From the NCBI GenBank assembly GCA_019695305.1, contig JAIBAG010000001.1, positions 18,774 through 82,773 on the forward strand: 64,000 nucleotides of DNA. Direction: 5' to 3'. This document shows positions 17,265 through 54,009 of the stretch, in pieces. The notes beneath the pieces were generated by a model that saw only the letters and a program-made list of their open reading frames with translations, searched no databases and was not told where the DNA came from. Origin of the DNA: a bacterium (GTDB lineage Bacteria; UBA10199; JAIBAG01). The position numbers and the translations under genes were made by a program. Position 1 is the stretch's first letter. Each line of letters opens with the position of its first letter.

Positions 17265-18914
17265 TTACTTAGAATCCCCAAACGATTTAGCCAAAACAGT
17301 ATCGTATTTGTAAATATCGTTCCCAAATTTAAGAATACCGTCATCATCCACCCAGGCAGTTTGGTAAAAAAGATGGATGGGCACGTGATGTTTCAGTGGC
17401 ACGGTGGTAAGCGCACCGCCGCTCATGGCTTTAATTTTTTTCATATCCCAGCCTTTTACATCACGTAAAATCCACTCGGCCATTTCCATGGGTTTTTCAA
17501 TACGAATACAACCCGAACTAAAGGCTCGTACACCACCTTTAAACAAATTGTGGTCGTTGGTATCGTGCAAATAAACATCTTCCCCATTGGGAAAAATAAA
17601 TTTGATGGTCCCTAAAGCATTATCGGTACCCGGACGCTGCACAATGCGATAATTAAAATTATCTTCATTTACATTTTTCCAATCAATTGTTGCAGGATCT
17701 ACCTCGGTTACATTTCCGTTATCGGTGGTATATACTTTCATCCCCATATTTTTTAAAAAATCGGGATTGTTTTGAATTTTGGATAGTTTGTCTTTAACAG
17801 CGATACTTTTGGGAACTGTCCATGTGGGGTTAAACACTACAAACTCAATTTCATCGCTAAAAAGAGGCGTTTTCCTGTCGGGACGGCCGGCAATCACGTT
17901 CATACCTAAGCGGGTACTCTCGCCATCTTTTACCTTAAGATAAAAACCCGGGATATTTACAAACACATAAGGACGTGAGGTGTCGGGTCTAAAACCACGC
18001 AAACGATCAAGACTAATACGGATACGTGCTAATTTTTGTTCGGGTGTTAAATTAAGCGCTTCTAAAGTTCCGCCACCAATCACACCATCCGGAGGCAAGG
18101 CATGTACTTCCTGAAACTTTTTTACCGCTATAACCAAATTATCATCGTAGGTGGTGGAGGCGTTATCAGCTTTTAAATAGCCTTCGGCCTGCAGACGTTT
18201 GCGGACTTCACGGATACGTAAATCGCGCATACCTGGTTCTAACTTGGCACCACCGGCCACTTTGGGCCACTCCATTTTAGGATAAGTTTTTAATACCCGT
18301 AAATATGCTTCTTTAAGCGTTCTATAGTCACGACTATTAGGTAACAATTCATTAAGGGCTGTACGGACAGCCCCATTTTGGGCATCCGTTAAAAATTGAA
18401 CATAGTTGAATGAGTTTGCATTTTTTACCCATTCCACTTTAGAGCCAACTCGTGGAAAAAGACCAAAACGATAAGCCGAAGTAAGAGCAAAAAATGCATC
18501 CGTCATCAGAACATCGGCTTTGGCCATAGATTCGGGGTTTACTTTTTTACCGCTTGATTTGAGATAATCTTCTAAAATTTTTTTATGAAACAGAGAAAAT
18601 CCCAAACCTTCATTTGCAGATTCATTGAGAATGCGTAAAAGATCTATTCCTTTACGTGTTAATCTTCCTTCAAAAAACCAGGCTGGTAAATGCCCTCGGC
18701 TTTCGTAAAAACTTTTTACTAAACTCAACGCTTTAAGCGAGGCATCCAATTTTTTGGAATTATTGATAACAGTAGAAATTTCTTTAGCACCATCAGAGTC
18801 ATTTTGTGCAAAAACAGGTGAGATAGTACCGGCAATGATTATGAAACAAAAAATATACTTTTTTAAACTGCCTAAAACAAACTGCCTGGAACCATAAAGG
18901 AATTTTTTATACAT
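17265..18914 (-). CDS. L,D-transpeptidase, YcbB/LdtD-like (PG-binding domain plus YkuD catalytic domain)
   Basis: PG_binding_1-like segment (KKFQEVHALPPDGVIGGGTLEAL) and the YkuD active site HDTN...SSGCIRI. Signal peptide present. The internal ATG at 18912-18914 is preferred to the TTG-initiated extension. Confidence 0.75.
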   Translation of the reverse strand: MYKKFLYGSRQFVLGSLKKYIFCFIIIAGTISPVFAQNDSDGAKEISTVINNSKKLDASLKALSLVKSFYESRGHLPAWFFEGRLTRKGIDLLRILNESANEGLGFSLFHKKILEDYLKSSGKKVNPESMAKADVLMTDAFFALTSAYRFGLFPRVGSKVEWVKNANSFNYVQFLTDAQNGAVRTALNELLPNSRDYRTLKEAYLRVLKTYPKMEWPKVAGGAKLEPGMRDLRIREVRKRLQAEGYLKADNASTTYDDNLVIAVKKFQEVHALPPDGVIGGGTLEALNLTPEQKLARIRISLDRLRGFRPDTSRPYVFVNIPGFYLKVKDGESTRLGMNVIAGRPDRKTPLFSDEIEFVVFNPTWTVPKSIAVKDKLSKIQNNPDFLKNMGMKVYTTDNGNVTEVDPATIDWKNVNEDNFNYRIVQRPGTDNALGTIKFIFPNGEDVYLHDTNDHNLFKGGVRAFSSGCIRIEKPMEMAEWILRDVKGWDMKKIKAMSGGALTTVPLKHHVPIHLFYQTAWVDDDGILKFGNDIYKYDTVLAKSFGDSK

Positions 18915-19042
18915 ATAATAATAAATTATTGATGAGGGTTTTTTTAAAAAATAAACCAACCATATCCTTAAATTATAACAATGGTCAAGATTGCATAATT
19001 TTTCAATTGCACCCCTAAAAACGTGGTGTTAGGCCTTTTTCA

Positions 19043-19849
19043 ATGACCTATTTTTTATCACTCTGCGAGTATATTTTCTTACGTTTAGTCAGACGCTTTT
19101 TCTTTACCGACAATGTGTTAGTGAAAGTTGGCAAATTGCTCCCTTACTACAGGGTCAATAGAGGGCAATCTAATTTTAAAAAATTAGTGGATGATTATGA
19201 GAGGCATTTAAAGAGTGTAAACAGTTCCCTCCAAAATAAATCTGTTCTCGAAATAGGTATAGGGAGTACTAATGCCAATGGATACGAAATTATTGCTCGC
19301 AACGCAGCCTTTTATTATGGGCTTGAACCTTATAGAAGCTTGGATATTTTACAAAATCAGCATGCCCTAACACTTTTACAAAACGAGCATCCCGATAAAA
19401 CCCTTTTATTTGAAAACTGCACTTCCCGCATCACATCATTTAAAGAAATAAAACCTAATTCAATTGATATTGTTCTTTCCAGTTCTGTTTTAGAACATGT
19501 AGAAAACAATAAACTTTTGTTTGAAAATATTAAAAAATGCCTTAAACCAGACGGTATCATGATTCACCAGGTAGATTATCGCGATCATTTTTTTAAATAC
19601 CCCTACCATTTTCTTATTTTTTCAAAAAAAATATGGAATACTTTTTTAAACCCGGGTGATTTGTATCGGTATAGGCTAGATGACCACATTAAAATACTTG
19701 ATGAGTTAGAATTTAAAACAAAAATACTGTCCAAACAAAGTTTAGAAAATGATTTTATAAAAATAAAAAAACACATAAACCCTCTTTTTCAAGGTTATTC
19801 TGAAGAATCATTAAAAACATCAGAGGCAGTTCTTTGTTCTCACTGTTAG
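19043..19849 (+). CDS. Class I SAM-dependent methyltransferase
   Basis: Motif I (VLEIGIGS) and the post-I acidic region. LKPDGIMI motif. Confidence 0.6.
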   Translation: MTYFLSLCEYIFLRLVRRFFFTDNVLVKVGKLLPYYRVNRGQSNFKKLVDDYERHLKSVNSSLQNKSVLEIGIGSTNANGYEIIARNAAFYYGLEPYRSLDILQNQHALTLLQNEHPDKTLLFENCTSRITSFKEIKPNSIDIVLSSSVLEHVENNKLLFENIKKCLKPDGIMIHQVDYRDHFFKYPYHFLIFSKKIWNTFLNPGDLYRYRLDDHIKILDELEFKTKILSKQSLENDFIKIKKHINPLFQGYSEESLKTSEAVLCSHC

Positions 19850-19850
19850 T

Positions 19851-21548
19851 ATGACAAACAAAATATATAAATCTTTGTCTCTTACTTTAGGCTCTATTCT
19901 CATTCTTCACATTATTTTGTCTATCCCCAGTTTTTGGGTGCCCTTTTACAAGGTAGACGAACTCACAAACGCTATTTATGCCCGTTTAATTGTTAATCAT
20001 GAATTAAGCTTAAAAGACTTTTTAGGAAGCACTTATTTTTTCACTCATTATTTTTACGCTCTCATTTTTCGCTTAATCGATAACAATTCTCTTATTCCTG
20101 TACATATAGCTCATTGTCTTTGGAAATGCGGAACAATCACAGGCTTATATTTAGCCGGGAGTGAACTGAAAGATAAAAAAACAGGACTTTACGCTGCACT
20201 TTTTTATACCGTTTATAATTGGTGTTTTATGAGTAAAGACTTTCATACTCCCAGCGCCGAAAGCTTATCACTTTTACCTGCCAGCTTTACCGCCTATTTT
20301 TTATTTAAGGGCCTGCGCTTAAGTCAGCCTTATCTTTTTTTTATAACAGGAATTTTTTGTGGAATGGCGGCTCTTTTTAAAGCCCCCATGGGAATTACTT
20401 TAGTAGCACTTAATTTAGTTTTTATTTTTTATCATCAAAACAGAATTAAATCATTCTTGCTTCTTAATATAGGTTTTATTCTTACCTATTTATCTCCCAC
20501 AATTTTTTATGGCGATGTGGTGGAAGGCTTTAAAATAGTTTTTGCCACGCTGTACGATACTAAAACAGCCTACATGTCGTACCACAAAGACTCGTTTATT
20601 TATTGGGGAATAAAGTTTTTATTACGCACCATGCTTATTTTTGCTTCAACTTTTGGCATGAGCTTTTTGGCGGTATATGCCATTCGTTTTTTATTTAAAA
20701 ACAAAAATAAAAATTCTCAATGGATCCATGTATGGTTTCTTACGTTGTGGTTATTATTTTTGTGGTACGACGCGACGCTTGGAAAAAGAATTTTCTTTTA
20801 CTACTTTAAATTTATGTTGGTACCACTATCTCTTATGGCAGCTCTTAGCATTACTTCGTTAGATCATATTACAAAAAATACCACTTTCTCGTTTAAAACA
20901 TCCCGCTTTATTAAAAAGCATTTGGCTTATTTTATGCTTATTCCGCTCATTGGTTTTTCGGTTGAAGGCGCTTTTAATTTTTCTACCAAAGCAGTTATTC
21001 CTTTTAATTTTACACCGGCTATTGACTACATCAAAAGCACTACAAAACCCGACGATAAAATTTTTGTTTGGGGCTATATTCCGCAGCTTTATTTTTATAC
21101 CAATAGAGAACCCGCCTCTACCTTTTTTTGGAGCGATGTATTGGCAGGCTCTTCCCCCGGTTCGCCTGCCATGGAGTATATTCATGCTACCGGCAATAAT
21201 TTAACCCTAAGTGAAAAGCTCACCAAAGACATGGTGCCATTTTCTTTTTCCGAAGAAGAAGCCGAAAAAATTGATCATCATTCTCTGAGTAAAGTATCGG
21301 ATAACGACTTATTTACGGTAAATGAGCTTTTGGGGCGTATTGATAATGATCATTGGAAAAAGGTTTTTGATGATTTTTTTAAGCATCCCCCTGTTCTTTT
21401 TATTGATACAGCCCCTCTTAATTACCGCGGCTTTGGTTATTACCCCATTTCAAACTATGAACTGTTAAAACGTTTTATTGCCGATAATTATGTGTACGAC
21501 TCTACGGTAAGCGGCATGCCCATTTATAGGCTTAAAAATAACCTATGA
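19851..21548 (+). CDS. Polytopic membrane protein with a C-terminal soluble domain (GT-C / ArnT-PMT-like fold suspected)
   Basis: At least 10 predicted TM helices in the N-terminal two-thirds, then a ~150 aa hydrophilic domain. Its start is 1 bp after the stop of the upstream methyltransferase. Confidence 0.45.
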   Translation: MTNKIYKSLSLTLGSILILHIILSIPSFWVPFYKVDELTNAIYARLIVNHELSLKDFLGSTYFFTHYFYALIFRLIDNNSLIPVHIAHCLWKCGTITGLYLAGSELKDKKTGLYAALFYTVYNWCFMSKDFHTPSAESLSLLPASFTAYFLFKGLRLSQPYLFFITGIFCGMAALFKAPMGITLVALNLVFIFYHQNRIKSFLLLNIGFILTYLSPTIFYGDVVEGFKIVFATLYDTKTAYMSYHKDSFIYWGIKFLLRTMLIFASTFGMSFLAVYAIRFLFKNKNKNSQWIHVWFLTLWLLFLWYDATLGKRIFFYYFKFMLVPLSLMAALSITSLDHITKNTTFSFKTSRFIKKHLAYFMLIPLIGFSVEGAFNFSTKAVIPFNFTPAIDYIKSTTKPDDKIFVWGYIPQLYFYTNREPASTFFWSDVLAGSSPGSPAMEYIHATGNNLTLSEKLTKDMVPFSFSEEEAEKIDHHSLSKVSDNDLFTVNELLGRIDNDHWKKVFDDFFKHPPVLFIDTAPLNYRGFGYYPISNYELLKRFIADNYVYDSTVSGMPIYRLKNNL

Positions 21549-22234
21549 AAGAAACTAAGATTAAAAGTGCGTTTATCTGCGGCACCGACACAGGGGTAGG
21601 TAAAACCATCATCACCGCCTCAATGGCCGCCGCCTCTTTAAAAAAGGGGCAGCCCGTTGCCGTTTATAAACCGCTCGAATCGGGTCGTGCCCGTGCTGAT
21701 AGTACTTTGCTTAAAAAAATGTCGGGAATGAATGAAAAATTAAGCGAGATCAACACTTTCTTTTTCAAAAACCCGCTAGCGCCGGGTGTGGCTGCGGAGA
21801 TAGAAAAGAAAAATGTGTCGCTCACGGCAATTAAAAAGCAATTTAAAGTATTAGAAAAAAAGTACGGAACGGTTTTAGTGGAGGGAGCTGGCGGGCTGAT
21901 TGTGCCTGTATGGAAAAATAAAACAAATTTGGATTTAATTAAGTTTTTGGATATCCCGGTAATCCTCGTTGGCCGATTGGGATTGGGAACTATTAATCAT
22001 ACGCTTTTAACGCTTGAACATTTAAAACGAAACAAAATTAAAGTAGCGGGTGTCATTTTGAATCAAACTACAAAGAAAATAGGACTGGCGGAAAAAACAA
22101 ATCCTGAAATTCTTAAAAAAATGGGGGTTAAGCTGTGGGGGATTTTTCCTTATTTGCAAAAAATTGATCAGAAAACTCTGGCCCTTCACGGTTCACTCTT
22201 CACCCTTCAATTTCTTCCACCCCGAAGGCCGTAA
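21545..22234 (+). CDS. bioD: Dethiobiotin synthetase
   Basis: P-loop CGTDTGVGKT, KPLESG and EGAGGLIVP motifs typical of BioD. Confidence 0.8.
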   Translation: MKETKIKSAFICGTDTGVGKTIITASMAAASLKKGQPVAVYKPLESGRARADSTLLKKMSGMNEKLSEINTFFFKNPLAPGVAAEIEKKNVSLTAIKKQFKVLEKKYGTVLVEGAGGLIVPVWKNKTNLDLIKFLDIPVILVGRLGLGTINHTLLTLEHLKRNKIKVAGVILNQTTKKIGLAEKTNPEILKKMGVKLWGIFPYLQKIDQKTLALHGSLFTLQFLPPRRP

Positions 22235-47145: not shown

Positions 47146-48312
47146 ATGACGCAAATTTATCTCACCATGCCTCAACCCGGTGAAACTATTACCGAGGGAA
47201 AAATCATCCGCTGGATTGCAAAAGAGGGCGATATGATCAAAGAAGGCGATATTGTGAGCGAGCTAGAAACAGAAAAAGCTCTCTTTGAATTTGAATCGCC
47301 CTTTGAAGGCCGTATTACAACGCTTATACATCACAATGGAGATAATGTTCCCGTAGGCGAACCAATTGCAGTGCTAGAAGTGGAAGATTCTAAAGCCAAA
47401 AACTATTTAATGATGGGCTTGGGTCAAAAAGGCCCGGAAGTTTCTCAAACAACGATTATAGAAACTAAAAAAGAAACTCCGGTTAAAAACAAGGCCCCTC
47501 TTTCTCATTCACCTTATATACGGAAAATGATCACGCAGCACAATCTCTCTGACAAACAAATTGAAGATTATTTAGAACAGCATCAAAAAGAAAAACTCAC
47601 CAAGGAGGATATTGAGAAACTGATAAAACCGAACCTGGATTCCGGCCTACGCCGGAATGGCACAGATCTTTACCAAGACATCCCCGTCTCTCCTATCCGC
47701 GAACGCATTGCTCAAAATATGCTTAAAGCGGTAACCACTATCCCGCACGCGCATACCAATGTGACCATTGATATGACTAAAATTGTAGAAAAACGAAAAC
47801 AAACAAAACAAAATTATTTGGTTCTTCTGTGGCCGGCATTAAAAGCCGCTATTCAAAAACACCCGTTGGTAAACGCTACTTATAAAAATGATCCGCCCAC
47901 GATCCGTACTTTTAATAAAATTCACTTGGGGGTGAGTGTAGATACCGATAAAGGGCTTTTTGTTCCTGTGCTAAAAGATGCCCATCTTGAAAAAGATTTC
48001 GAAACAAAATGGAACTCTTTGCTTCAAAAAACAAAAGACAACAAGCTGAGTGTGGATGAAGTTACCGGCGCCACATTTACGTTTAACAATTTTGGATATT
48101 TTGGAACAAACGTAGGGGTCCAAATTATTCCCTACCCGCAAGCAGCAAGTTTAGGCATGGGCCGCATTGAAAAACGCCCGTGGATTGTGGGTGAAGGTAT
48201 TGCTATACGCTCTGTATCGGAATGGACTTTAGCCTTTGATCACCGCGTGATGGACGGACGCGATGCCGCCCGCTTTATGGAAACGTTAAAAGAATTAATC
48301 GAACAAGCTTAA
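47146..48312 (+). CDS. Dihydrolipoamide acyltransferase, E2 component (single lipoyl domain)
   Basis: Lipoyl-lysine motif ELETEKALFEFESP and catalytic DHRVMDG motif. Confidence 0.9.
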   Translation: MTQIYLTMPQPGETITEGKIIRWIAKEGDMIKEGDIVSELETEKALFEFESPFEGRITTLIHHNGDNVPVGEPIAVLEVEDSKAKNYLMMGLGQKGPEVSQTTIIETKKETPVKNKAPLSHSPYIRKMITQHNLSDKQIEDYLEQHQKEKLTKEDIEKLIKPNLDSGLRRNGTDLYQDIPVSPIRERIAQNMLKAVTTIPHAHTNVTIDMTKIVEKRKQTKQNYLVLLWPALKAAIQKHPLVNATYKNDPPTIRTFNKIHLGVSVDTDKGLFVPVLKDAHLEKDFETKWNSLLQKTKDNKLSVDEVTGATFTFNNFGYFGTNVGVQIIPYPQAASLGMGRIEKRPWIVGEGIAIRSVSEWTLAFDHRVMDGRDAARFMETLKELIEQA

Positions 48313-48968
48313 ATTTGTTTTCTATCGGCCCCACGCGGGCGATTCATCATCTCTTGAAATAATTTCCGATCAATATCCAGCTTGCCCTGGAGATATAATT
48401 CGAGATGCTCCAAACGGTCGTTGCCCCAGAATACTTCGTCATCCACCACAAATGAAGGCACACCAAACACGTTTTGGTTAATTGCCTTATCGGTATTTTC
48501 TTTTAATTTGTTTTTGATAGCGAGATCGTTTGCTTTCGCAAGTAACGCATCGGCGTCGTACTTATTATTCATAAGAATGGACCGAACAACGTTAGCATCT
48601 GATATGTCAAGCCCCTCTTCCCACGACGCTTTTGAAAAAATGTTTGCCAGCTTAAAGCATTCATCACCTTCACCTAAAGACGTTAAAATTCGCAAAACTG
48701 TGAGTGGATTATAAGGATGTTGCGGTGGCAGCTTCATTTGAATTCCCAAAATTTTTCCAAAACGTAAAATCTCTTTCATCACATTCACGCGCTTGGCTGC
48801 TATTTCAGCCGGCCCCTTTTGCCCATGGGCATTGAGAAGGCCTGCAAATAAAACGGGAACGTATTTGATTTGTACATTTTGATTTCGTTTTAAAAACGCA
48901 GGCAGGCCATGAAAAGCCATATGCACATACGGACTGATGGGGTCAAAATAATAAGTGACGGTTTTCAT
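48309..48968 (-). CDS. DsbA-like thioredoxin-fold protein (2-hydroxychromene-2-carboxylate isomerase family)
   Basis: N-terminal YYFDPISPY and C-terminal GVPSFVVDDEVFWGNDRL motifs typical of HCCA isomerase / DsbA-family proteins. Start at MKTV. Confidence 0.75.
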   Translation of the reverse strand: MKTVTYYFDPISPYVHMAFHGLPAFLKRNQNVQIKYVPVLFAGLLNAHGQKGPAEIAAKRVNVMKEILRFGKILGIQMKLPPQHPYNPLTVLRILTSLGEGDECFKLANIFSKASWEEGLDISDANVVRSILMNNKYDADALLAKANDLAIKNKLKENTDKAINQNVFGVPSFVVDDEVFWGNDRLEHLELYLQGKLDIDRKLFQEMMNRPRGADRKQI

Positions 48969-48988
48969 AGTATTTCGCATGCTATGAA

Positions 48989-49534
48989 TTAACTTAGAAC
49001 ATCAGAAGCAAAATTTACTAAATGTAAATACCCTTTAAGGCCACCAAAATGAGGAAATTTTAGTTTCGTACCATGTTTATCTCTAGCATCAAGCTGAACC
49101 TGCCCATCGGGCGTATTTACAGTATAAATCGCTTTATTTCTGTTTGGATCTATATTCCAATAAACATCAGGCATTTTATGAGCATATGCCGATCGAATTA
49201 AAAAAATAATTTCACGAAGTGCATTTAAATCAGATGGGGTTTTTTCCCAATTTCGAAAACTACTTTTACCATGCCTAATTGAAAGGGCCTCGTCTACGGC
49301 AATAGTACAAGCGGCAAGCGATGCCATTAGTTGATTCATGACTGCCTTGTTCAATTCTTCTTGATTTATAATATCCCATTCAGGGACATCAAAAGTTACA
49401 TCATTCTGAATATTAAAAGTAACTTTGGGCTTAAATATATTAAAATCGATTTTGGCATTAAAACAACATACCACCAGTTTTACAGCAAAAGTAAACTGTT
49501 GTAATGCCCAATAAACACTTTCTTTTTCTGTCAT
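48989..49534 (-). CDS. Hypothetical protein of ~181 aa
   Basis: ORF only, with no motif recognised. Start taken at MTEKES (ATG at 49532-49534). Lies directly downstream of the dinD-like gene. Confidence 0.45.
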   Translation of the reverse strand: MTEKESVYWALQQFTFAVKLVVCCFNAKIDFNIFKPKVTFNIQNDVTFDVPEWDIINQEELNKAVMNQLMASLAACTIAVDEALSIRHGKSSFRNWEKTPSDLNALREIIFLIRSAYAHKMPDVYWNIDPNRNKAIYTVNTPDGQVQLDARDKHGTKLKFPHFGGLKGYLHLVNFASDVLS

Positions 49535-49622
49535 AATTTTTTGATGCCTTTCTACCACCCACAACATCCAGATCAAGCAAAAGCACATTTCAACGAATAT
49601 GAATTTACTCTTAATATAAACC

Positions 49623-50471
49623 TTAATTCTTCAATCTTTTCTCTTCTTTTTTCTCTCTAACTTTTTTCCTTTGTACTTTCTTAATACTGTCAGGGGTTGG
49701 CAAGTGCTCTGGCATGGTACCACCTAATTCTTTTATGGTTTCCCTCACCTTTTGGCCCACATTATAGTGGGTTTGATTAGCTTGAAATTTATTTTGATGC
49801 GGTTCTCGCTTGAGTTTTTCTTCTGTTTGGGTAGCACGAAATAAATTAGCAGCTAATTCTGTACTTCCCATATGATCCAAAATTTTTTGACTTTTCTTTA
49901 AGTTTTTTTTCGAATGAATATCCTTCGCTCCTAAACCCCCATATAGTCCTTTGTAACCAAAATCCTGAAAAATAGCATAATCAAGAGGTTCTCTTACTCC
50001 CGCTTTTTTAGCTACCTCGGCAAGGTGAATATTATGCTTGGAAATTTCATCACGCAAAAGTAAACGTTTTTCATTTTCACGATCTTGCTCCGAAAGCTCC
50101 TGTTTCCTGGTTTGAATTGCAAAATAGGTTTGGCCTTTGGCTACTATTTCTTTGGAGGGATCAGCATTTTGGACAATCAAATAACAAGCATACCGCGATA
50201 ACAAAACAGTGGGCATCACCCTATTTGCTCCTGACCCGAGAACCACATTTTCTGTGGTATCAATAAAATGCTGTTCGGCGATATTACCACTATTGATACA
50301 GGCCAACTTTGCTTTATCGATAACGGCTTGAAAATTTCTATACTCGAAATATTCAAGTATCTTTCCTAAATCACGAGACGACCAATATTCTTTTCCATTG
50401 GGATCCATTTTTTTGGCTATTTCAAAAATATTTTTGGAACCGACCATCAAATCATCTTTTTTCTCTTCCAT
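49623..50471 (-). CDS. dinD: DNA-damage-inducible protein D (DinD) family, with Bro-N-like N-terminal domain
   Basis: N-terminal DPNGKEYWSSRDLGKILEY...RNFQAVIDKAKLACINSG...HF pattern matches the DinD family as recalled. Lys/Glu-rich C-terminal tail. Confidence 0.65.
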   Translation of the reverse strand: MEEKKDDLMVGSKNIFEIAKKMDPNGKEYWSSRDLGKILEYFEYRNFQAVIDKAKLACINSGNIAEQHFIDTTENVVLGSGANRVMPTVLLSRYACYLIVQNADPSKEIVAKGQTYFAIQTRKQELSEQDRENEKRLLLRDEISKHNIHLAEVAKKAGVREPLDYAIFQDFGYKGLYGGLGAKDIHSKKNLKKSQKILDHMGSTELAANLFRATQTEEKLKREPHQNKFQANQTHYNVGQKVRETIKELGGTMPEHLPTPDSIKKVQRKKVREKKEEKRLKN

Positions 50472-50579
50472 ATGATAACCTCTTGTTTTTTATACAAAAC
50501 CATTTCGTGCATACCCACGAGATGGTCCATATCACTCCATAAAGAGTTCACTTTTCAAGAGAAAATATCTTAGGATCAC

Positions 50580-50597
50580 TTTGCCAAAGCTGGCAAA
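50580..50597. promoter_or_regulatory. Palindromic candidate operator TTTGCC-N6-GGCAAA, site 1, upstream of the dinD-like gene
   Basis: TTTGCCAAAGCTGGCAAA followed by ATGATCC. A second copy with the same architecture lies 117 bp away. Confidence 0.4.
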
Positions 50598-50696
50598 ATG
50601 ATCCAAGCAACCTAAAGTAATTTTCATAGGTGTAAAAATTACTAAATAATCTTTATTTATCAATAATTTTTGATCATGCCTGGCCAAAAGCACCAT

Positions 50697-50714
50697 TTTG
50701 CCGGCATTGGCAAA
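50697..50714. promoter_or_regulatory. Palindromic candidate operator TTTGCC-N6-GGCAAA, site 2
   Basis: TTTGCCGGCATTGGCAAA followed by ATGGTAT. The extended motif TTTGCC-N5-TGGCAAAATG is shared with site 1. Confidence 0.4.
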
Positions 50715-50873
50715 ATGGTATGGAGCGGTTACATCTCTATACAGTATCTGGCACCGAGCTATTCTGAATAAAAATCGATTCTAACATTGAATCGAGAGTT
50801 AGATATTTGTCTGGTAATTTTAATAAATTGTAATTAGGACATGCTTACAAAATTCTGAAATAAATATAGTGAA

Positions 50874-51227
50874 CTATAAACCCCATCTCCGAAGACAATT
50901 ATTATAATTTCGTTTTGCTTCTTGATAATCACTATCTGTGATAGTTTTTTTCATAAATATACTATATTTAGATTTTCGTTCGGGTGATAATTCATCATAT
51001 TCAAAGCCAGATATATATCGAGATAATGAAGAATCATCCTCATATATTTGTAATAATCGATAATCAATATTTTTTTGAATTACCCAATTAATATACCCAT
51101 CATACTCGTGCCTTTGACAATAAGATCGAATGCCCATTGGGCGTAATTGAAACCAAATAAATAATAAAAAGCCGATAATAGATCCTATAACTATTTTATT
51201 TTTTTTAGTCATATAAATATAGTGCAA
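50874..51227 (-). CDS. Hypothetical small membrane-anchored protein of 117 aa
   Basis: N-terminal TM helix (IVIGSIIGFLLFIWF) then a soluble domain. AT-rich codon usage. Confidence 0.4.
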   Translation of the reverse strand: MHYIYMTKKNKIVIGSIIGFLLFIWFQLRPMGIRSYCQRHEYDGYINWVIQKNIDYRLLQIYEDDSSLSRYISGFEYDELSPERKSKYSIFMKKTITDSDYQEAKRNYNNCLRRWGL

Positions 51228-51378
51228 AACGTGTTTACAAAACCATAAAAAATAAACAAGTTTTTTGATCTGACAGGTCTTAATAAAGCTTTATAACTCC
51301 TCCATAACAGTTTCATGTCTATTTCTGGAACTGTTCCCGTTCACAATACAAGTAAAAATTAAAAAATATGCAGTAACT

Positions 51379-52029
51379 TTATTGTTGGAAGCCTAATAGC
51401 CATAGCGCCACAAAATTATTAAAAAAGTGGCAAAGGATACAGAGCCACAAGTTTTGTTCTTTAGCGTACAAGCGGCTGATGTAAAACCCCAACACTAAAA
51501 GTCCGGGTAAAAACCAGGGATTTAAATGCGCTACGCCAAATACAATGGTTGCTGTTGCTACCGCAAAAGACGCACTCTGTTTTTTTAAGAGCGCATTGAG
51601 ATAAAAACCTCTAAAGAAAAATTCTTCGCACACAGCAGGCATCAACGCATAAAACGCCACATCACGCACGTTACTAAAACTAGCATCCTGCGGCATCATA
51701 TTTAAAATCCATTCGGGGATAGGAAAAAAATAATCGGTAAGGGTGACGAGTGACATGGCTATAAACGAAACCGCCAGCATTTGCAGAAGTATTTTAAAAA
51801 TTAATTTGAGAGAAGGAAAACTTAAAGATGGATCCTCCGCCTTAGGCGGACCGGAATGACGATGGGTGATTATATAAACAACCCCAGGAATTAAAAAAAA
51901 GGCAATTTGCGCCACATATAAATAATCCATCCCCAATACCTGTCCGGTGAGATGGTAAAGAATAATAAGAATAATGGCTAAAAAGTGGAGCATGGATCCT
52001 TTCTTGATTTTCCTTCCACAACCTGCCAA
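51379..52029 (-). CDS. CPBP family intramembrane glutamic endopeptidase (CAAX protease / bacteriocin self-immunity type)
   Basis: Motif 1 EEFFFRG, motif 2 FGVAHL and motif 3 HFFNN across multiple TM helices. Confidence 0.75.
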   Translation of the reverse strand: MAGCGRKIKKGSMLHFLAIILIILYHLTGQVLGMDYLYVAQIAFFLIPGVVYIITHRHSGPPKAEDPSLSFPSLKLIFKILLQMLAVSFIAMSLVTLTDYFFPIPEWILNMMPQDASFSNVRDVAFYALMPAVCEEFFFRGFYLNALLKKQSASFAVATATIVFGVAHLNPWFLPGLLVLGFYISRLYAKEQNLWLCILCHFFNNFVALWLLGFQQ

Positions 52030-53838: not shown

Positions 53839-53911
53839 TCCGGGCTCGTCCAACGGCAGGACATTTGACTCTGACTCAAAGAATCAAGGTTCGAATCCTT
53901 GGCCCGGATCA
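53839..53911 (+). tRNA. tRNA-Gln (anticodon CUG)
   Basis: Cloverleaf folded by hand: acceptor TCCGGGC/GCCCGGA, D-arm GTCC-AACGGCA-GGAC, anticodon arm TTTGA-CTCTGAC-TCAAA (anticodon CTG), and T-arm CAAGG-TTCGAAT-CCTTG. Confidence 0.85.
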
Positions 53912-53984: not shown

Positions 53985-54009
53985 AGGTTCGAATCCTTGG
54001 CCCGGATCA
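53985..54009 (+). repeat. 25-bp direct repeat of the tRNA-Gln 3' end (T-arm plus acceptor), 73 bp downstream of the tRNA. Candidate att-site remnant.
   Basis: AGGTTCGAATCCTTGGCCCGGATCA is identical to tRNA positions 53887-53911. No matching 5' half, so it is not a second tRNA. It lies 17 bp upstream of the rpoH-like start. Confidence 0.7.

Follow-up and report, generated by a model that had tools for sequence, protein, structure and literature searches.

Does a short AT-rich segment in which dinD lies upstream of a gene for a 181-amino-acid (aa) protein encode one stress or defence module, or does it carry genes that are merely neighbours? The segment, positions 48,989–51,378, belongs to a 64-kb stretch of DNA from an unclassified bacterium (the window, 64,000 nucleotides). 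It had been described, from the letters alone, as an islet holding a dinD-like gene with a candidate effector partner, a small membrane protein and a CPBP protease. The reading that we favour, at a probability of about 60%, is that of an acquired islet whose three cargo genes are unrelated and which lacks any mobility gene, the cargo being dinD, a putative standalone HEPN ribonuclease (RNase) and an orphan membrane open reading frame (ORF). All of the ORFs originally listed are present, on the minus strand, and the features referred to below are as follows (GC3, GC content at third codon positions).

48309..48980, minus strand: DsbA-like thioredoxin-fold gene, a flanking core gene (Pfam DSBA, 9.6e-35; GC3 0.41).
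48989..49534, minus strand: gene for the 181-aa protein, standalone and HEPN-like, a putative metal-independent RNase (from motif and fold; family without a database model).
49535..49622, minus strand: spacer between dinD and the HEPN-like gene, 88 nt, without a terminator-like site.
49623..50471, minus strand: dinD (DNA damage-inducible protein D), 282 aa, N-terminal Bro-N and DinD C-terminal region (NF008573, PF02498).
50472..50873, minus strand: spacer upstream of dinD, 402 nt, containing an array of hairpins together with a promoter-like site and, belonging to the upstream ORF, a terminator-like site (from fold and site scans).
50577..50600, no strand assigned: proximal 24-nt palindrome, on the minus strand CATTTTGCC-AGCTTT-GGCAAAGTG, overlapping the promoter-like -35 hexamer.
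50616..50643, no strand assigned: third hairpin of the array, AGTAATTTT, a 10-nt loop and AAAATTACT (read from the sequence).
50694..50717, no strand assigned: distal 24-nt perfect palindrome, CATTTTGCC-N6-GGCAAAATG (from the sequence).
50874..51227, minus strand: 117-aa ORF, an orphan, with a single hydrophobic segment near its N terminus (GC 0.274, the lowest of the islet; GC3 0.19).
51228..51378, no strand assigned: AT-rich spacer at the right edge of the islet (GC 0.29).
51379..52029, minus strand: CPBP (Rce1-like) intramembrane protease gene, a core-like flanking gene (Pfam PF02517, 3.9e-20; GC3 0.41).

The 181-aa protein, recorded as the hypothetical protein MBX7147506.1, is listed as an ORF of 199 aa, and its homologues begin at an internal ATG. 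It had been reported as lacking a recognisable motif. It has no Pfam, NCBIfam, PADLOC or PHROG match, but an HEPN-type Rx4H motif was found. Ten close homologues (53–66% identity) were recovered from Microbulbifer, uncultured Shewanella and metagenomes, and a profile search of 1.84 billion representatives extended the family to 187 clusters at 50% identity, nearly all of whose members are single-domain proteins of ~180 aa. Nearly all of 158 relatives share the motif, which is R114-SAYA-H119 here, in the form R[CNS]A[FY]AH, and across 142 aligned sequences only five positions are near-invariant, namely R114, A118, H119, P124 and W126. An acidic residue, D81, is invariant in the close family and appears as the D of the 142-sequence consensus AIxxDxAL. 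A few distant members are fused proteins (P0033, P0034, P0087 and P0133), one with an N-terminal DUF429 and the others 367–434 aa in length with extra regions that have no Pfam match.

An AlphaFold model of the protein (predicted local distance difference test score 89.6, predicted template modelling score 0.84) contains four long helices (residues 3–25, 58–88, 102–117 and 165–180), a short helix (93–98) and two beta-hairpins. The model places R114-x4-H119 at the end of the third long helix (102–117) and the start of the next loop, and D81 in the second helix. The active site of HEPN proteins is defined by Rx4-6H at the end of core helix 3 and the start of the following loop, together with an acidic residue in helix 2 (PMC3710099). 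The motif is thus the Rx4H signature of HEPN RNases in a position that matches the published definition, which supports an HEPN assignment. A further hallmark of the superfamily is an up-down bundle of four helices in which an insert separates helices 2 and 3, a topology that the four long helices of the model may or may not share.

Structure and profile comparisons agree with this assignment but are individually weak. The top match of the model in a Foldseek search of the PDB was 3jrt (E = 0.59), the viral fold library returned no significant match, and a PDB sequence search with the family profiles gave nothing useful, the one motif-only match being 3c8l (E = 0.55). A Pfam scan of the 142 aligned members yielded a single recurrent family, PF18736, in six members (best E = 0.017), and PF18736 did not match the 181-aa protein itself even at E = 0.1. 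The weak recurrent PADLOC matches of family members were to DzbB and Cas13. For a direct comparison by hhalign the pEK499 protein was retrieved, its family membership confirmed and a PF18736 profile built. The two families aligned over the motif helix (28 columns, E = 2.7e-4, probability 41%). An equation of pEK499_p136 with PADLOC DzbB was also considered and dropped, the pEK499 protein having no PADLOC match. On sequence and model together, the 181-aa protein probably belongs to the HEPN superfamily, as a new family and not as a member of PF18736.

Like pEK499_p136 (PF18736, 'HEPN family nuclease'), the 181-aa family comprises small standalone proteins (~160–180 aa) found on mobile or variable DNA, and the aligned helix ends in both as LRxxIxxxR[NCS]xxAH. 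In contrast, outside the 28 aligned columns the sequences are unrelated, and the new family has two beta-hairpins as well as a PxW, invariant, that follows the motif. The type VII HepT/MntA HEPN toxins (PDB 5yep_B, 8xdj and 1jog) are only 7–12% identical, and no MNT nucleotidyltransferase gene occurs at the window locus, in the homologue loci or among the neighbours of distant members. AbiD/AbiF (Abi_2), AbiV and ApeA are single-gene abortive-infection (Abi) HEPN proteins that act without a partner. The logic proposed here for the 181-aa family is the same, one HEPN protein with no partner on variable or mobile DNA (PMC3710099), although no sequence similarity between these proteins and the family was detected.

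The alternative that survives best is that the protein has an HEPN-like fold but is no nuclease, and instead binds a ligand or nucleic acid or serves in regulation or immunity, roles that several HEPN domains fill. No partner antitoxin and no consistent defence neighbourhood among the distant members would fit such a role, as would the two beta-hairpin inserts, which are atypical of minimal HEPN toxins, and the residue after the motif Arg, which is Ser here and mostly Cys or Asn in relatives, the Cys and Ser departing from the Asn, Asp or His usual in HEPN proteins. However, Arg and His stay near-invariant over 142 diverse sequences while the remainder drifts to ~20% identity, which is the pattern of a catalytic site, and the motif is typically lost in non-catalytic HEPN domains (PMC3710099). 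We thus consider a non-nuclease role unlikely, and retain the putative standalone RNase as the preferred reading of this gene.

The identity of its neighbour is clear. The original prediction of a DinD-family (Bro-N-like) protein stood, the 282-aa product matching the NCBIfam equivalog NF008573 at 6.3e-114 (380.2 bits, cut-off 242; residues 7–278 against 4–281 of the 288 model positions) and carrying an N-terminal Bro-N domain (PF02498, 4.8e-8, 33.9 bits, cut-off 25.6). Further matches were to the PADLOC candidate defence model PDC-S13 (2e-111), to phrog_8036 (2.9e-96) and to the N-terminal part of a PADLOC type I specificity-subunit profile. By these sequence comparisons the protein is a true DinD. 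It shares with E. coli DinD 61% identity, the Bro-N N-terminus, the full-length equivalog match and a conserved LSRYACYLIVQN core. E. coli DinD inhibits RecA filaments in biochemical assays. Unlike its E. coli counterpart, the islet dinD sits in an AT-rich islet of an unclassified bacterium and has two phage-type palindromes upstream in place of an E. coli-type LexA box; CTGT-N8-ACAG at up to one mismatch, an E. coli-type consensus that may not be that of the host lineage, was absent from 50472–50873.

The placing of DinD proteins in phage-related and defence contexts was likewise borne out, by the PDC-S13 match and by their carriage on phages and satellites. An integrase-like ORF adjoins dinD in eight of the ten phage contigs examined (L128, L129, L142, L151, L198, L223, L256 and L261, with a Streptococcus satellite, L026, as a further locus of this kind), and in most of the ten the gene ahead of it is of helix-turn-helix (HTH) type, as judged by eye from the N-terminus. 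In most of these contigs dinD thus lies inside the lysogeny module. The neighbours of its homologues on one satellite, on two plasmids and on the E. coli chromosome are unrelated, and the gene is a widely travelling accessory gene that stands alone on such replicons. On the Zymomonas plasmid pZM36 (L028, 3848–5176) dinD is annotated as 442 aa, with an N-terminal extension of ~40 residues and further extra sequence, and is flanked by two toxin-antitoxin pairs. The literature offered nothing usable on DinD in defence or on PDC-S13. In these contexts dinD recurs beside the integrase as an accessory gene of prophages and satellites, which sharpens the question of what DinD does.

Whether the two genes belong together was assessed through the company of their homologues, beginning with six other genomic contexts of the close homologues (53–66% identical). 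In Microbulbifer the homologue occupies an accessory-gene (moron) slot of a lambda-like prophage, between head and tail genes. The second context is a chromosomal stretch of unrelated hypothetical genes, and in the third the homologue adjoins an Eco57I/MmeI-type methylase. In Shewanella (L006, 6001–6546) it is split into ORFs of 107 and 72 aa and is probably a pseudogene. The fifth copy adjoins a 406-aa protein with a PDC-M14A-like match, and the sixth (L012, 941–2218) lies between rplA and rplJ, accompanied by an HD-domain gene. This last two-gene insert interrupts an otherwise very conserved ribosomal-protein cluster. A Bro-N gene was thus nearby in one of the six contexts, that of Microbulbifer, and dinD in none. 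The company of the close homologues that is of defence type consists of the prophage moron slot, the Eco57I/MmeI-type methylase, the PDC-M14A-like gene and, in the islet itself, the PDC-S13 match.

The Microbulbifer insert (Microbulbifer sp. ANSA001 prophage, L001, 5159–8994) holds five genes, encoding a 91-aa protein, the HEPN-like homologue, an 80-aa protein, the Bro-N protein and an RDD protein, and the Bro-N protein has a weak PDC-S69 match. For the distant members, 77 metagenome loci were fetched and the 74 that contained a family member were analysed. Neighbour clustering over these 74 loci gave no recurring neighbour beyond near-duplicate contigs, and Pfam detected no Bro-N gene in them. 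The Pfam neighbours were mostly housekeeping genes, with a few toxin-antitoxin and ATPase genes, integrases and one methylase.

The original prediction had joined dinD and the 181-aa gene in one stress or defence module, with DinD as sensor or regulator and the 181-aa protein as effector. The genes lie on the same strand, 88 nt apart and with no terminator-like site between them; a Bro-N protein is encoded 720 nt downstream of the Microbulbifer homologue; and a PADLOC profile with a fusion of the DinD domain to type I specificity subunits points to multi-component systems. However, the Microbulbifer Bro-N protein is no DinD (BLASTP E = 1.1, no significant similarity), another gene intervenes and the gene order is reversed relative to the islet. 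The five remaining close contexts are without any Bro-N gene, the 74 distant loci without a conserved neighbour, and DinD was solitary in all contexts examined. Because the 181-aa gene is not co-conserved with dinD in any of the contexts examined, the module is largely refuted as proposed, and we hold it to be very unlikely. While the 181-aa protein is effector-like in its HEPN RNase-type motif and fold, the module it was meant to serve is unsupported; dinD and the HEPN-like gene are co-located neighbours, not a conserved two-gene system, and adjacency to dinD is no evidence of a system.

The predicted AT-richness of the segment was confirmed, and provides the first line of evidence for an acquired islet. 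The GC content of 48989–51378 is 0.334 as against a mean of 0.413 (standard deviation 0.024) for other 2390-nt windows (z = -3.3), the whole 64 kb averaging 41%, and GC3 agrees. About 1% of 2390-nt windows are equally low, all within one second patch at ~18.3–21.3 kb. The GC3 of the islet genes (0.22 for the 181-aa gene, 0.31 for dinD, 0.19 for the 117-aa ORF) lies below that of the neighbours (0.37–0.46; DsbA-like 0.41, CPBP 0.41, MscS 0.37, E2 0.39), and this step of 0.1–0.2 coincides with the gene borders of the islet. The CPBP gene, with its core-like GC3 of 0.41, is outside the islet by composition. Its identification stood (Rce1-like, 3.9e-20, with EEFFFR, FGVAH and HFFNN in the translation supplying all three motifs, EExxxR, FxxxH and HxxxN), while its membership of the islet did not, the gene having no connection with it.

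The second line of evidence comes from relatedness. The islet dinD and HEPN-like proteins are 61–66% identical to gammaproteobacterial proteins, while the best relative of the adjacent DsbA-like protein, whose gene starts 8 nt past the stop codon of the HEPN-like gene, is no more than 40% identical among 185,579 species genomes searched. Homologues of dinD and of the HEPN-like gene are carried on phages, satellites, plasmids or prophages. Taken with the GC3 step, these identities support recent horizontal acquisition of ~2.4 kb of DNA between two apparently native genes, CPBP and DsbA-like. That the stretch is instead native DNA, fast-evolving or weakly expressed, is the least likely of the alternatives, for while it has no integrase, transposase or flanking direct repeat and no empty site for comparison, and while the second patch at 18.3–21.5 kb suggests that the genome tolerates such regions, GC3 falls by 0.1–0.2 precisely at the gene borders, the two proteins are 61–66% identical to those of unrelated bacteria as against 40% or less for the adjacent native gene, and homologues of both genes occur on phages, satellites, plasmids and prophages. 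The acquired islet is thus the reading that we carry forward, and such an islet, small and with cargo of defence type, is of an ordinary kind.

Several results weigh against this reading. No recombinase ORF (integrase or transposase) was present in the islet by ORF list and family scans, and no credible direct repeats were found flanking it. The islet thus shows none of the recombinase, flanking repeats or tRNA insertion of an integrative element or prophage remnant. No empty-site genome, or synteny through the DsbA-like neighbour, was found in the species genomes (no relative above 40%), and because of this the insertion and its borders are drawn from composition. As for the HEPN-like gene, neither the close nor the distant alignment found the family in viral contigs, no antitoxin or regulator is evident beside the gene, and the housekeeping neighbours of the distant members weaken a defence reading. 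To our knowledge, no RNase activity, toxicity or phage phenotype has been reported for any family member.

The third cargo gene, the 117-aa ORF, has no Pfam, NCBIfam or PADLOC family and no homologue among 5.8 billion proteins. It is nonetheless probably a real gene, because a 117-codon open frame at this composition is expected at ~3e-5 per frame start by our own estimate, and it probably starts at the ATG at 51212.

Between this ORF and dinD lies the 402-nt spacer, corresponding to the 400-bp non-coding stretch of the original prediction. The spacer exists, but is not featureless, since it contains an array of hairpin palindromes. As RNA it folds at z = -5.3 against shuffles, and it contains four hairpin units with a 39-nt period, a promoter-like site (minus strand; -35 TTGCCA at 50596, -10 TAAGAT ending at 50567) and a terminator-like site (minus strand, 50795–50775). 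Two of the four units are the 24-nt palindromes, both of the form CAyTTTGCC-N6-GGCAAArTG, and TTTGCC-N6-GGCAAA occurs at exactly two sites in the window, both of them in this spacer before dinD. No Rfam family matches the spacer or the viral hairpins. A decayed dinD fragment was considered as the origin of the spacer and rejected, nothing DinD-like being present beyond HFAxxGKM units.

The palindrome itself proved to be widespread in phages. Exact CATTTTGCC-N6-GGCAAAATG gave at least 120 matches in viral contigs, where ~1 chance match would be expected for 18 specified bases by our own estimate, and those listed comprise 102 distinct flanks. Read in frame the palindrome encodes H-F-A-x-x-G-K-M, and 11 viral loci have it, or a near variant, within the dinD gene, where the phage DinDs have the motif HFADVGKMV and the islet DinD reads HFIDTTENV. 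Other sites are short open frames, in tandem units with inner triplets that change in step (GCC/GGC or CGT/ACG), or intergenic hairpins with extended stems. Still others adjoin integrase genes, and in one case the site is flanked by an integrase gene and the end of a tRNA. The viral loci carrying the palindrome are numbered L107–L274 in our set.

A scan for D-H-F-A-x-x-G-K-M in any codons was used to separate peptide from nucleotide conservation. Among the 120 stretches listed, the codons are exactly those of the palindrome in 72. None of the remaining 48 is perfect, and those tabulated after deduplication have seven or eight of the nine arm positions complementary. Free synonymous choice predicts one perfect stretch in 128 and a mean of six of nine complementary positions. 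The excess of perfect stretches (72 of 120 against 1 in 128) demonstrates that the constraint acts on the nucleic acid and not on the peptide alone. Within 1.2 kb of the palindrome, over 89 non-redundant viral contexts, Cro/cI-type HTH, Peptidase_S24, integrase, Bro-N, Abi_2, RhuM and Rha domains are enriched, which places it in the early and lysogeny region of temperate phages. The palindrome is thus statistically solid and phage-associated, and is linked to dinD. It may be an operator, recognised by a repressor or by DinD's own Bro-N domain, or it may form a structured hairpin in RNA or DNA. That it serves as the core site for phages integrating into dinD was also considered, and was rejected as the viral dinD genes are full length and on the inner side of the integrase. 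No mention of the palindrome or of its peptide was found in the literature. That its nucleotides are kept in many unrelated phage contigs, and within a protein-coding motif, makes it a concrete lead.

From these elements the following scheme may be envisaged. A putative repressor would control dinD through the phage-type palindromes, one of which overlaps the promoter-like site. Since no terminator-like site separates the two genes, the RNase gene may be read from the dinD promoter, and co-transcription of dinD and the HEPN-like gene is possible; the DsbA-like gene, only 8 nt further on, may be read likewise. Such a shared transcript would place the RNase under the control of dinD. The HEPN-like protein itself would, from its motif and modelled fold, be a metal-independent RNase with an active site formed by Arg114 and His119, where the third core helix ends, and by Asp81 of helix 2, probably across a dimer. 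By analogy with single-gene Abi-type HEPN proteins, it might remain inactive until stress or phage infection, and then cut RNA so that growth stops. The small 117-aa membrane ORF would be an orphan third cargo gene.

A bolder version of this scheme, which we put forward only tentatively, has two parts. In the first, the 181-aa family would be an undescribed single-gene HEPN RNase system of defence or toxin type. In the second, the palindrome would act in cis, as a conserved DNA or RNA element in the early and lysogeny regions of temperate phages, kept even within the dinD coding sequence and perhaps recognised by a repressor or by DinD through its Bro-N domain, and here it would gate both dinD and the RNase gene. 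Should the 181-aa family be an active RNase, a widespread HEPN family (the 187 clusters noted above) would have been missed by current defence and toxin annotation tools.

Further observations concern the surroundings of the islet. The second AT-rich patch (~18300–21550, GC 0.30–0.35) contains one ORF of 268 aa and one for a multi-pass membrane protein of 565 aa, which resemble, as judged by eye, a methyltransferase and a glycosyltransferase. As annotated, the divergently transcribed CPBP and MscS genes share 45 nt at their starts (51985–52029), and the real start of CPBP is probably a downstream ATG (MLHFLAIIL...). The tRNA-Gln with a duplicated 3' end that had been pointed out 2.4 kb away, beyond two native-looking genes, is present as described. 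The gene lies at 53839–53910, and its last 25 nt (53887–53911) are perfectly duplicated at 53985–54009, 98 nt downstream. This repeat does not flank the islet and is unrelated to it. The duplicate sits just ahead of a sigma-factor gene and resembles the scar of a lost tRNA-integrated element.

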